Origin: an uncultured Opitutales bacterium
Lineage (GTDB): Bacteria > Verrucomicrobiota > Verrucomicrobiia > Opitutales > UBA9783
Direction of reading: 5' to 3'
DNA: 32,000 bases
Assembly (NCBI GenBank): GCA_934691225.1
Contig: CAKUSQ010000001.1
Coordinates: forward strand, 30,001-62,000
Both the position numbers and the translations under genes were made by a program. Positions 13,436 through 17,338 of the stretch are shown here, one piece after another; the first letter of the stretch is position 1; every line of letters starts with the position of its first letter. The notes below the pieces were generated by a model. The model was not told the origin of the DNA, searched no databases, and saw nothing but the letters and a program-made list of their open reading frames with translations.

Positions 13436-13819
13436 ATGCCTATTGAGATTTTAACACCAAATAATATGCAACATTCACAAAATAAATCTAAAGATACCTT
13501 GCAAGAGCTTGCTCAATTGGACAAAAAGCTTGCTCAATTGCAAACATTTTTTAGATCTACTAAAACCGGCGATGTAAACGATAGTCTATTAACCAAACAC
13601 AATGTACAAGAAGCTATCGCACTGCTGGAAAAAATTAATCCTTCAGAAAAAAATATGATTTATGCATTAAAATCTTTGCTCCCATTATCTGAAAAAACAC
13701 CGCAGGAACTTAGCAATCTTCCGGATAACCTCTCTAAACTTAATACAAATCCTACCGAGAATTACAATCAATGGACTCCAAAATTAAAAAGTAAAGTTCC
13801 TTTAAACCGCGTTATATAA
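13436..13819 (+). CDS. Hypothetical small helical protein (127 aa), first gene of the accessory operon
   Basis: ORF with no signal peptide or TM segment. It has a coiled-coil-like stretch (DTLQELAQLDKKLAQLQTFF) and a Pro/Asn-rich tail, and is net basic by my count. The stop lies 2 nt before the next ATG. No family recognised. Confidence 0.55.
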   Translation: MPIEILTPNNMQHSQNKSKDTLQELAQLDKKLAQLQTFFRSTKTGDVNDSLLTKHNVQEAIALLEKINPSEKNMIYALKSLLPLSEKTPQELSNLPDNLSKLNTNPTENYNQWTPKLKSKVPLNRVI

Positions 13820-13821
13820 AT

Positions 13822-15540
13822 ATGTCATCCTCACCGAATATTTCAAATATAAGCTACATCTACCCTATTGCTAAAAATCTGAATTTGGGTGACAATCCAA
13901 CTATTGATCAAATTAAAACTGCTTATAATGAGCAATTTAAGTCACACAAAACAACTCTCGAAAATCTTTTTAATCAACTAAATAATATTTTCGGAATAAA
14001 GGATACAAAAATAACGCTACCCATTTCTATTTCTGTTTCTGATTTTATAAAAAACATTTGCGATGACTGTGATGAAAGTAACACCGCTTACAAATTTTAT
14101 GGTTGTAAAATCATCAATAAAATTAATCAATTATCAGATTATATAACCGAAGCAAACGCTATTATTGAACGAATCGGAAAGCTCACAGGAGATGAAAGCA
14201 CTAAAAATAATCAAGCGCATTCATTGTTTGTTCAACTTGAATGCTTAGATAATTTTTGCTCAGAAATTGCACAAGAATTTGGAAATCGATATCTTTACGA
14301 TTCCGAAGAAGATATTTGGAAATTAAAAATTGACGATTACAATAAATCAAAAAATTCACAATTAGAAACTAATAAATACGATAATTTGGATAACTTACGG
14401 TCAATCCCCGTAGAAATTTATCCTAATCCTAATAAAAAAGGTACCGTTTCCAAAACCATTGAGTGTTTCAATGAACTCAATTTATTAGATCGTTTAACAT
14501 ACATAAAATTATACTACGATATCACTCAAGGTAAAACCGATTATGTGTTTCCAAATGACAAAAATTTAGGCTTCCCTTGTGTTAAAGAAGATGAATCATC
14601 AGAAACACGAATAGGTAATTTAGAAAAGTTTTTCTTAGGTTATCTTATCGACCGCGATGGCCCTATCAACGCATTTGTTAACTTTTTTGAAATCAAAACA
14701 TCCGCTTTACGTTCAACAATAGCATTGATGTCAGAAAAGATAAAAGCACTCAACGTATACCTAGCTTTTATCAATCGAGCACTCAACTTACTTAACGAAA
14801 GCCAAAGCTCAAAAAATGAGAAAATTCCTGATGGAACTGTCATTGCCATGACATATCTGTGCGATAACACCGCTTACAATTTATTCGAAGATAAAACCAA
14901 TAATCAAAAATATCTCGTCATTCCTTATGAAGGTAAATACCTTTTGGTAAGGGCAGATGAAAGTGGAATGCGATTTTTACTGGGAGACGGAAAAGAAAAC
15001 GATTATAATAATTCCAACGGCTCATGCTACTTACATAGTTATGCTAATGAAACCTACAAGATTTTCATACTATATGCAGAGAAAAAAGCTGATGGAACGA
15101 CAGAAACTAAAGAAATATCTCCCATATTAAATGTTGAAAAAAATAACGAAAGTAAAGAAAACGTTAAACCAACAGCGTATTATGCCAATGAAAAAGCTAA
15201 TTACGCAGACGATCATACCAAATACCATTATGATCCTCAGCAAGACGAAATTCACGACTTTAAATTACCTCGACCTATACCTGAAGTTCAAGCCATTGCC
15301 CACAAAAGTATTCTGAACTATCAGTACGCAAGATCAAAGGAAGCTGATAACAAAGTTGTCACCTCATGGCAAGACGCTTTACAAAAGAAAACTTCCTACA
15401 TCGACACCGCTATTGAAAGCATCAATACAGATATTGAAGTTTTTAGAAATAAGATAGATACCTTTGATTCTATGTGCTCTCAACTGAACTCTCGTGTACA
15501 AGACGTCTACCTAAATACAATTAAAAATACAAACCAGTAA
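13822..15540 (+). CDS. Hypothetical 572-aa protein, paralog A of a tandem pair (no recognisable family; possible non-Sec secreted protein)
   Basis: Long uninterrupted ORF, Asn/Lys/Ile-rich, no Sec signal, no TM segment. Collinear homology to the next gene along the whole length: SNISYIYPI/SNVNYLYPV, NQAHSLF/NQAHALI, FNELNLLDRLTYIKLYYD/FNSLTLLDKLKFIRYYYK, core GYLIDRDGPINA...TSALRS.IALMSEKI, and the C-terminal helix. Confidence 0.8.
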   Translation: MSSSPNISNISYIYPIAKNLNLGDNPTIDQIKTAYNEQFKSHKTTLENLFNQLNNIFGIKDTKITLPISISVSDFIKNICDDCDESNTAYKFYGCKIINKINQLSDYITEANAIIERIGKLTGDESTKNNQAHSLFVQLECLDNFCSEIAQEFGNRYLYDSEEDIWKLKIDDYNKSKNSQLETNKYDNLDNLRSIPVEIYPNPNKKGTVSKTIECFNELNLLDRLTYIKLYYDITQGKTDYVFPNDKNLGFPCVKEDESSETRIGNLEKFFLGYLIDRDGPINAFVNFFEIKTSALRSTIALMSEKIKALNVYLAFINRALNLLNESQSSKNEKIPDGTVIAMTYLCDNTAYNLFEDKTNNQKYLVIPYEGKYLLVRADESGMRFLLGDGKENDYNNSNGSCYLHSYANETYKIFILYAEKKADGTTETKEISPILNVEKNNESKENVKPTAYYANEKANYADDHTKYHYDPQQDEIHDFKLPRPIPEVQAIAHKSILNYQYARSKEADNKVVTSWQDALQKKTSYIDTAIESINTDIEVFRNKIDTFDSMCSQLNSRVQDVYLNTIKNTNQ

Positions 15541-15544
15541 AATC

Positions 15545-17338
15545 ATGTCTTTAACTACCGATTCCATTTCTAATGTTAACTACTTATATCCTGTTCCAAC
15601 TTTGGCAACAGCAGAATCTATAAATGCAAACACACTAAAAGGTATTGCAGACAAGTATAAAGATCAATTTGAAGCACATGAAAAGATACAAAATCAAATT
15701 TTTAATAACTTTCGAAGCATTTTAGACTTACAAGAAAATGACTACAAAACAATCGATTCTTTAGGTACAAGCGAATTTTACAGAGATACAAAAACAATCA
15801 ATGGCAAAAAAATTGATAAAAATTGCTGTGTTGAAGGATATCTCAGTTATCGATTTTATATAAAAGAAATTGTAACAAAGTTACAAAATATAGAAAAATA
15901 CCTAAATGAAGTTAAAGAAATATTTCAAAATTTAAACGATTTAAAAGGTACTGATGAACAAATCAGTAATCAAGCACATGCTTTAATCGATCGATTATCC
16001 ATATTAGATAAATTTATTTATGAAAATATACAAGATTTCCAAGAATATTTTATATACAACAATGATATAAAACAATGGGAACAAATATACACAAATATTA
16101 CTGCATCTAGTATACCCTCACAGTTATCAAATTATAACCAATATGAAACATTGGAGGCACTTAGAAAAACTCAAATTGCTTATATAGACTCTTCACTAAA
16201 CAACCCGAAGGCTGATATAAGTTCTTTCAATTCATTAACGCTTTTGGATAAGTTAAAATTCATTCGATATTACTACAAACTTATTTTAGAAAAAGATGTA
16301 AGCTTTCATATTTTCCCAAGTGATGTAGAAACAGGTTATCCCTGTTTACCCAATGTAGAAAGCAAAGAAAAAACAAAAGCTACACAAGAATTAGGATCCC
16401 TTGAATTATTTTATATAGGTTACCTCATTGACCGCGATGGCCCTATCAATGCAGTATCTAGTTTCTTTGAAGTCAAAACCTCAGCTTTACGTTCAAATAT
16501 TGCTTTAATGTCTGAGAAAATATCCGCTTTAAATGAATATCTATCGTTCATTAACTGTGCTATGGACCTACTAAATCAAAGTCAATCTAACGCCTCCAAT
16601 GATAAAAAGAACCGTATTCCTGATGGTGCATGGATCGCACTTACTTATATATGCGGACAAGATATGTACAACCTATTTGAATACAAAGATAAAAAATACC
16701 TTGTAATACCCTACCAAGGTGATTATTTGTTGGTAGAAGCAAGTAAAGCAGGTATGTTGTTTTTACTAGGAGACAAAGTAGAACATATTGAATGGCAGGA
16801 TTCTGACAAAGACATCTCAAATTCAAATGGTTGTCTCTATGTAGATCTAGAAGATAAAAGGCTTTTTTTTTACAATCAGTTCGATGTTTCGGGTTCTTCA
16901 GTAAAACCTGTCAATAAAAACACACCTGAATACTTAGCTACTACGACCACAACTACAATTGATGGCAAAGAAACGAAATGTAATATAGGTTACTATGGTG
17001 AATACAAAAAATATAATAACTGGGAACAAGCTATGGTAAAAACGGTAAAAATTTCTGACTTTAAACTGCCTACACAATTAGAAGTTCAAACCATTATTCC
17101 TGGAAGCGTTTCCAAGTATAATTCGTTTTCAGACCGTAATGCTATTACCACTGAAGTTGTTAATTCTTGGACCACAGCCTTTTCAAATAAAACACAATAC
17201 ATTAACACAGCTATTGATACCATTAACACAGATGTTACCTTAGACCGCTCTAAAATTGATACTTTTGACTCCTTGTGTTCAACTTTCAGAAATAAAGCTC
17301 ACGAAGCCTATTCAAATACTGCTTCAAATATTCGGTAA
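15545..17338 (+). CDS. Hypothetical 597-aa protein, paralog B of the tandem pair
   Basis: Starts 4 nt after the paralog A stop. Same architecture and conserved blocks as paralog A. Contains a T9 run at 16863-16871. Its stop TAA directly abuts the stop of the convergent DUF59 gene. Confidence 0.8.
   Translation: MSLTTDSISNVNYLYPVPTLATAESINANTLKGIADKYKDQFEAHEKIQNQIFNNFRSILDLQENDYKTIDSLGTSEFYRDTKTINGKKIDKNCCVEGYLSYRFYIKEIVTKLQNIEKYLNEVKEIFQNLNDLKGTDEQISNQAHALIDRLSILDKFIYENIQDFQEYFIYNNDIKQWEQIYTNITASSIPSQLSNYNQYETLEALRKTQIAYIDSSLNNPKADISSFNSLTLLDKLKFIRYYYKLILEKDVSFHIFPSDVETGYPCLPNVESKEKTKATQELGSLELFYIGYLIDRDGPINAVSSFFEVKTSALRSNIALMSEKISALNEYLSFINCAMDLLNQSQSNASNDKKNRIPDGAWIALTYICGQDMYNLFEYKDKKYLVIPYQGDYLLVEASKAGMLFLLGDKVEHIEWQDSDKDISNSNGCLYVDLEDKRLFFYNQFDVSGSSVKPVNKNTPEYLATTTTTTIDGKETKCNIGYYGEYKKYNNWEQAMVKTVKISDFKLPTQLEVQTIIPGSVSKYNSFSDRNAITTEVVNSWTTAFSNKTQYINTAIDTINTDVTLDRSKIDTFDSLCSTFRNKAHEAYSNTASNIR

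Follow-up and report, generated by a model that had tools for sequence, protein, structure and literature searches.

A three-gene operon of undescribed proteins

We analysed a window of 32,000 nt from an uncultured Opitutales bacterium (contig CAKUSQ010000001.1 of assembly GCA_934691225.1, positions 30,001 to 62,000), which carries a trio of plus-strand open reading frames (ORFs); coordinates given without a locus name refer to this window. ORF1 (13436-13819, 127 aa) encodes a small helical protein, for which we propose a role as export chaperone or regulator, and is separated by 2 nt from ORF2 (13822-15540, 572 aa), which is in turn separated by 4 nt from ORF3 (15545-17338, 597 aa). These positions are exactly those reported in a first-pass annotation made from the sequence alone. 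That annotation had overlooked that ORF2 and ORF3 are paralogs, aligning end to end with 37% identity (E 8e-109), and that a sigma-54-type promoter precedes the trio. Homologs match the trio proteins at E values as low as 1e-117, and the three are therefore genuine genes.

Sequence and profile searches of Pfam, NCBIfam and PDB yielded no significant match for ORF1, ORF2 or ORF3, and the candidate families that these databases offered for the trio and for 45 family members were rejected as coiled-coil noise. Transmembrane (TM) segments are absent from the trio, with a maximum Kyte-Doolittle 19-residue mean of ≤1.14. The earlier statements that the proteins belong to no recognisable family and lack TM segments are borne out by these results.

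The trio had also been described as more AT-rich than its flanking genes and as an accessory islet. Its GC content is modestly lower than that of the other window genes (0.311-0.326 vs 0.357 ± 0.022), whereas GC at third codon positions (GC3) is the same (0.24-0.28 vs 0.275 ± 0.029), and several further window genes are equally AT-rich. The extra AT is confined to codon positions 1 and 2, and Asn, Lys and Ile make up 25.5-28.7% of the trio proteins, compared with about 18% elsewhere. Given the equal GC3 and the Asn/Lys/Ile-rich proteins, the AT-richness stems from amino-acid composition and not from foreign DNA. We thus rejected a foreign islet origin, against which it also speaks that the module is kept clade-wide with its own conserved promoter, as described below.

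None of the three ORFs is preceded by a Shine-Dalgarno-like sequence. At the far end of the trio, the stop codon of ORF3 abuts that of a convergent FeS_assembly_P (SufT-like) gene with 0 intergenic bases (17336-17341), and this junction shows no recognisable terminator on either strand.

Sigma-54-type control of the operon

A -24/-12 promoter of the sigma-54 (RpoN) type lies at 13406-13421 on the plus strand (TGGCATTCATTCTGCT; TGGCAT-TCATT-CTGCT, GG-N10-GC), with its -12 GC 16 nt ahead of the ORF1 ATG. It conforms to the consensus TGGCAC-N5-TTGCW in having the -24 GG and -12 GC 10 nt apart at a fixed distance from the gene. The motif is the sole match in the window (0.14 expected), which taken alone is weak evidence. 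However, the same motif precedes the ORF1 homologs at 17 of 18 distinct loci (numbered L below), the -12 GC being 14-18 nt from the start codon (27 in one locus), and it stands 27-34 nt ahead of free-standing genes of a third paralog type, type C, as well as inside flagellar operons. As there is one sigma-54 promoter, while ORF1 lacks a sigma-70-like promoter on its upstream side and the trio contains no plus-strand terminator, the three genes are almost certainly co-transcribed, as the first-pass annotation had held. The distance between the -12 GC and the ATG (13419-13436) would leave an mRNA leader of only about 4-5 nt in most loci. At L008 the promoter of the ORF1 homolog is duplicated, with two identical copies of TGGCATTTTTCTTGCT at 5203-5218 and 5250-5265, 47 nt apart.

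Upstream of ORF1, in the intergenic region shared with a divergent lipase gene, we found an inverted repeat, TAGGAAAAATTTTC-N8-GAAATTTTTTCCTA (13296-13331; 14-nt arms, 93% complementary), roughly 75-110 nt ahead of the -24 element; judged from its position only, it is a candidate enhancer or operator site for an activator. Conservation of the repeat is limited to loci with the lipase gene: its box, GGAAAA(A)TTTTCC, was found again ahead of ORF1 at L008, L013, L019 and L021 and at no other locus.

In the metagenome-assembled genomes (MAGs) from termites, the gene divergent from ORF1 encodes a 238-aa protein with a coiled coil and a Zn-ribbon (L025 18476-19192, minus strand), which is a full-length homolog of Chlamydia CT398/CdsZ (4ILO, E 7.6e-9) and of H. 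pylori HP0958/FlgZ (3NA7, E 3.6e-5). Equivalents were present at L003, L014, L015, L017, L022, L026 and L027, and none stands beside the window trio. Proteins of the CT398/HP0958 kind bind or stabilise sigma-54 and bind FliH/CdsL, which are proteins of type III secretion systems (T3SSs) (PMC5947703, PMC3372290), and in epsilon-proteobacteria the rod, hook and hook-associated genes are under sigma-54 control (PMC3930126). The flagellin genes of the genomes analysed here carry sigma-28-like promoters instead (TAAAGTTT-N11-GCCGATTT at L007).

A gut-restricted family with three paralog types

A word-indexed search of 5.8 billion proteins returned 65 clusters of ORF2 relatives and only 8 clusters of ORF1 homologs, and an exhaustive search of 1.84 billion representatives with a hidden Markov model (HMM) returned only 98 relatives, with no tail toward any large family. 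By these searches, the ORF2/ORF3 family is undescribed, in agreement with what had been proposed. It was present in about 15 of 185,579 GTDB species genomes, all of which are MAGs of uncultured Opitutales/Puniceicoccales (Verrucomicrobiota) from rumen, Hadza human gut or termite gut; the expected restriction to host-associated relatives is thus what we observed, and one of these genomes additionally encodes a TLC ATP/ADP translocase. The window organism itself was met again in metagenomes, on 15 or more contigs that reach 847 kb in length.

The family comprises three full-length paralog types, designated A (ORF2-like), B (ORF3-like) and C. In tblastn and local HMM searches, the ORF1 homolog stood directly upstream of a type A or type B gene in 18 of 18 distinct loci, the order being ORF1, type A, type B in the rumen and human-gut lineages and ORF1 followed by a single type B gene in termite Puniceicoccales. 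The surroundings of the module vary among loci, and it is therefore the module itself, not its neighbourhood, that is conserved. Type C proteins, which were found by local hmmsearch, are 640-790 aa long and match the profile over their full length.

Several members are giants of 937-1765 aa (L005 12580-17877, L007 11551-14364, P0088, P0095, P0096 and P0100), each with very large insertions at one site behind the N-terminal helical hairpin. Those of 999-1765 aa match the profile in two stretches that break at position ~180-185, right after a beta-hairpin, as expected of a surface-exposed loop, and the inserted domains have no Pfam match. At L019, the type A gene is broken into two fragments (8081-8689 and 8839-9894; 202 and 351 aa), which represents either a pseudogene or an assembly frameshift, and types B and C are intact there.

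Type C genes are coupled to a type III translocator and its chaperone

In every context examined (L019, L020, L021, L023, L025-L029, L032, L033 and L036, of which L023 is from UBA1183 and L020 and L025-L027 are termite MAGs), the type C gene is followed immediately by a gene for a tetratricopeptide repeat (TPR) protein of 181-192 aa and then by one for a membrane protein of the SseC family (PF04888), 381-514 aa long. We identify the TPR protein as a class II chaperone for T3SS translocators, matching SycD (2e-13), IpgC (2e-12) and PcrH (1e-10), with AcrH also matched. The SseC-like proteins match PF04888, and one of them bears the NCBI name "translocon subunit SctE". The P/VxLxxP sequence is reportedly a chaperone-binding motif, in work attributed to Lunelli et al. 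in 2009. Five of eight SseC-like neighbours carry PxLxxP at residues 59-66, a position that agrees with that of the chaperone-binding domain of IpaB (residues 60-72; PMC8117225). Types A, B and C were rejected as clients of the TPR chaperone via PxLxxP, having no conserved motif of this kind; with neither a TM segment nor a conserved P/VxLxxP, they do not qualify as class II chaperone-dependent translocators (SctE/SctB) either.

The window contains no T3SS gene, and its type A and type B genes do not lie beside the chaperone and SctE genes; the link runs through paralogy, the shared promoter and the divergent adjacency seen at L019 and L021. At these two loci, the lipase, type C, TPR and SctE genes occupy one strand and ORF1, type A and type B diverge on the other, which is the arrangement of the window with the translocon genes still attached. 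Furthermore, types A/B and C co-occur in every MAG in which this could be checked (UBA1183, E19_bin342, Cc175_bin121, Cd354, Gx481, Pcl387 and J6Z25). A metagenome scan for SctE relatives found nothing. Because genes for a class II T3SS chaperone and an SctE translocator come after type C in all cases, a genomic tie between the family and a secretion system is supported by gene order. The first-pass annotation had proposed a secreted or host-interaction module of the effector or virulence type; the undescribed family, its tie to a T3SS and its confinement to a gut-restricted clade agree with this proposal, whereas the idea of an accessory islet of foreign origin is not supported and the module does not look like a free-standing effector cassette.

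At L032, the region directly upstream of the type C operon (2994-8234) contains a pilin gene, four unannotated genes whose order and size are PilMNOP-like, and a secretin gene. In UBA1183, a TLC-type ATP/ADP translocase (L023 19280-20800, minus strand; PF03219, E 1e-148) is encoded a few kb from the flagellar/translocon cluster, as is an RNI-type LRR_6 (leucine-rich repeat) protein (L023 16790-17842, minus strand), and a homolog of the latter occurs at L005 too. Bacteria that live at the expense of eukaryotic hosts typically have TLC translocases and LRR_6 proteins, and the presence of both genes beside this cluster suggests dependence on eukaryotic cells.

We considered whether these could be cytoplasmic coiled-coil proteins, cytoskeletal or regulatory, whose neighbourhoods reflect nothing but clade-specific synteny. 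They have no detectable signal peptide, the families that they match, all weakly, amount to coiled-coil noise (for example Prefoldin and ATG17), and in termite MAGs housekeeping genes stand between the module and the SctE operon. However, the association recurs in a flagellar operon, in lipase-divergent loci and in free-standing operons, the ORF1 and type C genes have the same type of promoter, and the order type C-TPR-SctE is invariant even though type C proteins are only 24-35% identical to one another. We hence regard a function unrelated to secretion as very improbable.

The type C operon is fused to a flagellar operon in three species

In three species (L023, L028/L029 and L036), whose type C proteins are 35-50% identical, type C-TPR-SseC starts 2 nt after fliO, at the end of a tightly packed flagellar operon with the order fliF, fliG, fliH, fliI, fliJ, an unassigned gene, a fliK-like gene, flgD, flgE, fliL, fliM, fliN, fliO (L023 1-14307; L028 1-13866; L029 3-11640; L036 1-14122). 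The genes that normally come after fliO are fliP, fliQ, fliR and flhB. At L023 and L036, a STAS gene follows the SseC gene and is reminiscent of the regulators that control the Bordetella T3SS by partner switching. FliG, FlgD and FlgE are flagellum-specific markers (PMC3459982). The flagellar T3SS is the only one seen next to family genes, so the export machine is most likely of the flagellar type. In the literature that we searched, there was no description of a conserved chaperone-translocator pair fused to a flagellar hook-basal-body operon.

A canonical flagellin of 266 aa (Flagellin_N 3e-27), with D0/D1 only, is encoded on the minus strand at L007 (16773-17573) and L016 (8269-9069), 2.4 kb and 6.6 kb, respectively, from the ORF1-A-B module. 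Since ordinary flagellins are encoded in the same genomes, the family was ruled out as a flagellin or its replacement.

The proximity of these flagellin genes is nonetheless one of the observations that would fit a purely flagellar set, in which ORF1 is FlgN-like, types A and B are highly divergent functional replacements of FlgK and FlgL, which form the junction between hook and filament, type C is perhaps cap-like and the link to SctE is incidental. The order of one small helical protein and two large ones resembles flgN-flgK-flgL, which are contiguous in other bacteria, and no canonical FlgK, FlgL or FliD was found in the 590 kb examined. In addition, sigma-54 drives the hook-associated genes of Helicobacter and Campylobacter (PMC3930126), while the flagellins here have sigma-28-like promoters. 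On the other hand, type C comes in every case with a chaperone and a translocator of the injectisome type, the termite lineages have a single gene after ORF1, and only about 15 gut species carry the family, whereas flagella are widespread. Moreover, Pfam readily recognises the FlgE, FlgD, FliK and flagellin of the same genomes, yet no Flg_bb_rod, Flg_bbr_C or Flagellin_N/C appeared among the 25 families that were matched by the largest numbers of the 45 members (E≤10). We therefore consider this flagellar explanation, the main alternative, doubtful; the structural comparisons that also bear on it are given below.

Predicted architecture of the family proteins

An AlphaFold2 model of ORF2 built on a 45-sequence alignment was confident, with a predicted local distance difference test (pLDDT) score of 83.9 and a predicted template modelling (pTM) score of 0.69. 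Its predicted helices (28-56, 84-119, 125-154, 269-327 and 510-571) form a long helical bundle, which is accompanied by a beta-hairpin (155-170) and a beta-rich domain (355-476). Residues 1-12 are disordered (pLDDT <50), and family-wide the first 25 residues contain much Pro and Ser but few charged residues. Together with the lack of a hydrophobic N-terminus or TM segment in A, B and C proteins, these N-terminal features may support T3SS export in which a disordered N-terminus, in place of a Sec signal, directs the protein.

Foldseek searches of PDB with the ORF2 model gave no significant match. Flagellin, FlgL or filament complexes accounted for 12 of the first 13 entries, with weak scores (E 0.05-0.9, TM score 0.15-0.43). 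In the model, the long helices of the two termini bundle together and beta-domains are inserted between them. This predicted likeness to flagellin and FlgL is weak evidence, and it provides the best fold matches for the flagellar explanation. Profile comparisons count against that explanation, as does the lower conservation of the termini relative to the core. With a 141-sequence family profile, hhalign probabilities were <1% for E. coli FliC, FlgK, FlgL, FliD, FlgE, FlgD and the rod proteins, and flagellar axial proteins were rejected on this basis. For the flagellin/FlgL class in particular, the PF00669 and PF00700 signatures had no match in ORF2 or ORF3 at E≤1, flagellin families were absent from the 25 families mentioned above, and the probability against E. 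coli FliC and FlgL was 0.1%; flagellins of the same genomes are matched at E 3e-27. For the FlgK/rod-hook class, PF00460 (Flg_bb_rod) and PF06429 (Flg_bbr_C) had no match, and FlgK, FlgE, FlgG, FlgB, FlgC and FlgF gave ≤0.5%.

The SctA tip and filament families (LcrV, IpaD/SipD and EspA/SseB) had no Pfam match in the family, and neither an injectisome tip protein nor a toxin of the ClyA type was among the top 50 Foldseek matches in PDB. By genomic position, adjoining the class II chaperone and SctE genes, type C is nevertheless SctA-like in all contexts examined. Two further candidates were rejected. ClyA-type toxins combine a helical bundle with a hydrophobic beta-tongue head and have paralogous components of about 350-400 aa, and for the tripartite alpha-pore-forming toxins (ClyA/Hbl/Nhe/MakABE) we found only a noise-level match to MakE (E 0.74), with no fold match and no hydrophobic head. 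A phage-structural origin received nothing meaningful from a fold search of BFVD.

Conservation peaks in a central core (221-380), which includes an invariant GYLxDRDG at ORF2 273-280 (about 14638-14661), and reaches its minimum in a hypervariable block (401-480, a predicted beta-domain), with the termini below the core. A Cys motif at ORF2 80-97 (about 14059-14112) reads CxDCDExNxAYKFYG in type A and CKEGxKAYKYY in type C. Conserved cysteines and an invariant Asp/Arg-rich loop are odd in a purely structural secreted protein.

The hypervariable region, together with the paralog expansion and the giant insertion variants, would also be compatible with types A and B being effectors that act inside the eukaryotic host cell, where a shared scaffold would deliver or target host-specific variable domains and ORF1 would be a class I-like chaperone. 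The host-associated lineages, the TLC translocase and eukaryote-like LRR protein near T3SS genes, the co-regulation of the module with the translocator and the adjacent small partner gene all fit this possibility. However, the three types share a full-length architecture and fixed operon positions clade-wide, which is more typical of apparatus parts, and family searches revealed no enzymatic or eukaryote-like domain. Class I chaperones have an alpha/beta fold, whereas ORF1 is predicted to be all-helical. An effector role for A and B is thus, in our judgement, quite unlikely.

ORF1 itself was modelled with low confidence (AlphaFold2, pLDDT 64), with helices at 9-41, 54-67 and 72-85 followed by a disordered tail that ends in the strongly conserved TPKLKSKVPLNR[IV]I. 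Its homologs are helical proteins of 116-127 aa. It had no match at E≤1 in Pfam or NCBIfam, including the FlgN, FliS, FliT, LcrG, SseA and CesAB families, and hhalign gave a probability of <0.5% against FlgN and FlgM. A Foldseek search of PDB found nothing, a result that the low confidence of the model makes uninformative. In layout, ORF1 corresponds to a small export chaperone, being ~100-140 aa in size, all-helical and encoded directly upstream of putative substrate genes.

Proposed mechanism and comparison with known systems

From the observed paralogy, restricted distribution, gene orders, shared promoter, chaperone and translocator identity, flagellar fusion in three species and predicted architecture, we infer secretion, extracellular assembly, a chaperone role for ORF1 and a route of export. 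We propose, with a probability of roughly 55%, that the trio is a sigma-54 operon for a chaperone-like partner and two paralogous extracellular structural or adaptor proteins that are exported by a T3SS and work with type C and SctE. The promoter would drive ORF1, ORF2 and ORF3 as a single operon, and ORF1 would act in the cytoplasm on behalf of A and B, as their dedicated chaperone or as a regulator of their export. Types A, B and C would be exported as type III secretion substrates, most likely via the flagellar-type T3SS. Outside the cell, the family members may serve, alongside the pore-forming translocator SctE, as structural or adaptor elements of an apparatus for host contact, bringing A, B, C and SctE into contact with a eukaryotic membrane. 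Type C and its class II chaperone and SctE would be encoded elsewhere in the genome, as we presume also for the organism of the window. Overall, the module looks like a component of a flagellar-linked sigma-54/T3SS regulon and not like a free-standing effector cassette.

More speculatively, gut Opitutales may run a flagellum-type T3SS that retains FliG, FliM/N, FliL, FlgD, a sigma-28 flagellin and the hook protein FlgE but has gained a translocon like that of injectisomes (class II chaperone and SctE) and the axial or adaptor family A, B and C, in which the trio would be the adaptor between a hook- or needle-like end and the pore. Such a hybrid could have arisen when a flagellum was independently exapted for injection into host cells, or else it could be a relic of the transition between flagellum and injectisome. 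We hold this extension to be possible, though not likely.

By analogy, the family may work like the tip/translocon sets of injectisomes or like flgN-flgK-flgL sets, although it failed to group with either in all sequence-based tests. Among injectisome operons, the closest in organisation are lcrG-lcrV-lcrH-yopB-yopD of Yersinia, pcrGVH-popBD of Pseudomonas and sseA-sseB-sscA-sseC-sseD of Salmonella SPI-2. As in these, the gene for a hydrophilic, elongated helical protein (type C) lies just before those for the class II TPR chaperone and SctE, a small helical partner gene lies directly ahead of family members (ORF1 before A/B), the chaperone is homologous to SycD, PcrH and IpgC, and the translocator belongs to PF04888. 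By contrast, the family has no sequence or fold match to LcrV, IpaD, EspA or SseB, its members exceed those proteins 2-3 times in size and fall into three paralog types (A, B and C), the small partner goes with A/B and not with the translocon-linked type C, a second translocator gene (SctB) is missing, the promoter is of the sigma-54 type, and in three species the type C operon sits in a flagellar and not an injectisome cluster.

The resemblance to flgN-flgK-flgL/flagellin concerns gene arrangement, protein sizes, helical termini with inserted beta-domains and the best, though weak, fold matches, and the variable insertion site of the family is analogous to the hypervariable domain of flagellin. 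The regulation is also like that of the epsilon-proteobacterial hook-associated protein genes, a middle class under sigma-54 (PMC3930126). Unlike flagellin and the hook-associated proteins, the family lacks their signatures, is more conserved in its core than at its termini, occurs in genomes that encode an ordinary flagellin, and includes one paralog type that always accompanies an injectisome-type translocator.

Flagellar T3SSs also export non-flagellar proteins, such as FlaC, Cia and Fed in Campylobacter and the phospholipase YplA in Yersinia enterocolitica. These are likewise host-interaction proteins co-regulated with flagellar genes, and they leave through the flagellar apparatus where no dedicated injectisome exists; here too a lipase gene is linked. 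They differ in that none of those systems is known to include a class II chaperone and SctE. Flagellar export in the present case is a proposal, and the lipase here appears to carry a Sec-type N-terminus.

The chlamydial scc2-copB-copD set offers a comparison from the same Planctomycetes-Verrucomicrobia-Chlamydiae superphylum, in which translocon genes are likewise dispersed from the apparatus genes and sigma-54 control is found. To our knowledge, Chlamydiae have neither hook nor flagellin. A further likeness is that a homolog of CT398, which binds sigma-54 and T3SS components (PMC5947703), adjoins the module in termite MAGs. By contrast, A, B, C and ORF1 have no chlamydial homolog among the 1.84 billion representatives.

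What is new here is the protein family and its arrangement in related genomes; the kind, a T3SS substrate-plus-chaperone operon, is known. We found nothing relevant in the literature on T3SS or flagella in Opitutales/Puniceicoccales or on CAG-312. If our proposal is correct, the family would represent an uncharacterised class of type III secretion substrates with a structure of its own, found solely in uncultured Verrucomicrobiota of host guts, and A, B, C and ORF1 would be testable candidates for host or protist contact by abundant uncultured Opitutales of the rumen, human gut and termite gut. A chaperone-translocator pair fused to a hook-basal-body operon bears on how tip and translocon parts joined injectisomes as these evolved from flagella. 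Abby and Rocha could not place the tip and translocon proteins in their scheme leading from flagellum to injectisome (PMC3459982), and a hybrid flagellar injection device, if real, would supply an origin for these components.

Other features of the window

The divergent neighbour of ORF1 is a class-3 lipase gene (11596-13260, minus strand; PF01764, E 5e-12), whose product has an N-terminus that appears to be of the Sec type. In tblastn searches, a lipase gene (42-51% identity) was kept in the same divergent position at L008, L013, L019 and L021, so that the lipase-like partner noted in the first-pass annotation is confirmed and its pairing with the module extends to four other loci. The lipase gene is followed in the window by an S1-repeat gene (9765-11435), earlier labelled rpsA, and the suf genes flank the trio on its other side, as had been stated.

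A gliding-type ABC-2 transporter cluster (ABC_tran, ABC2_membrane, ABC_transp_aux and DUF4340; 25318-30155) is followed by an open-ended plus-strand ORF of >616 aa (30152-31999). This ORF has no Pfam match, a GC content of 0.307, an Asn/Lys/Ile share of 27% and a strongly basic product (charge +21), and it does not belong to the A/B/C family. Ahead of the transporter cluster, the window carries type IV pilus/type II secretion-like genes, including an N-methyl pseudopilin and T2SSF (23342-25226).

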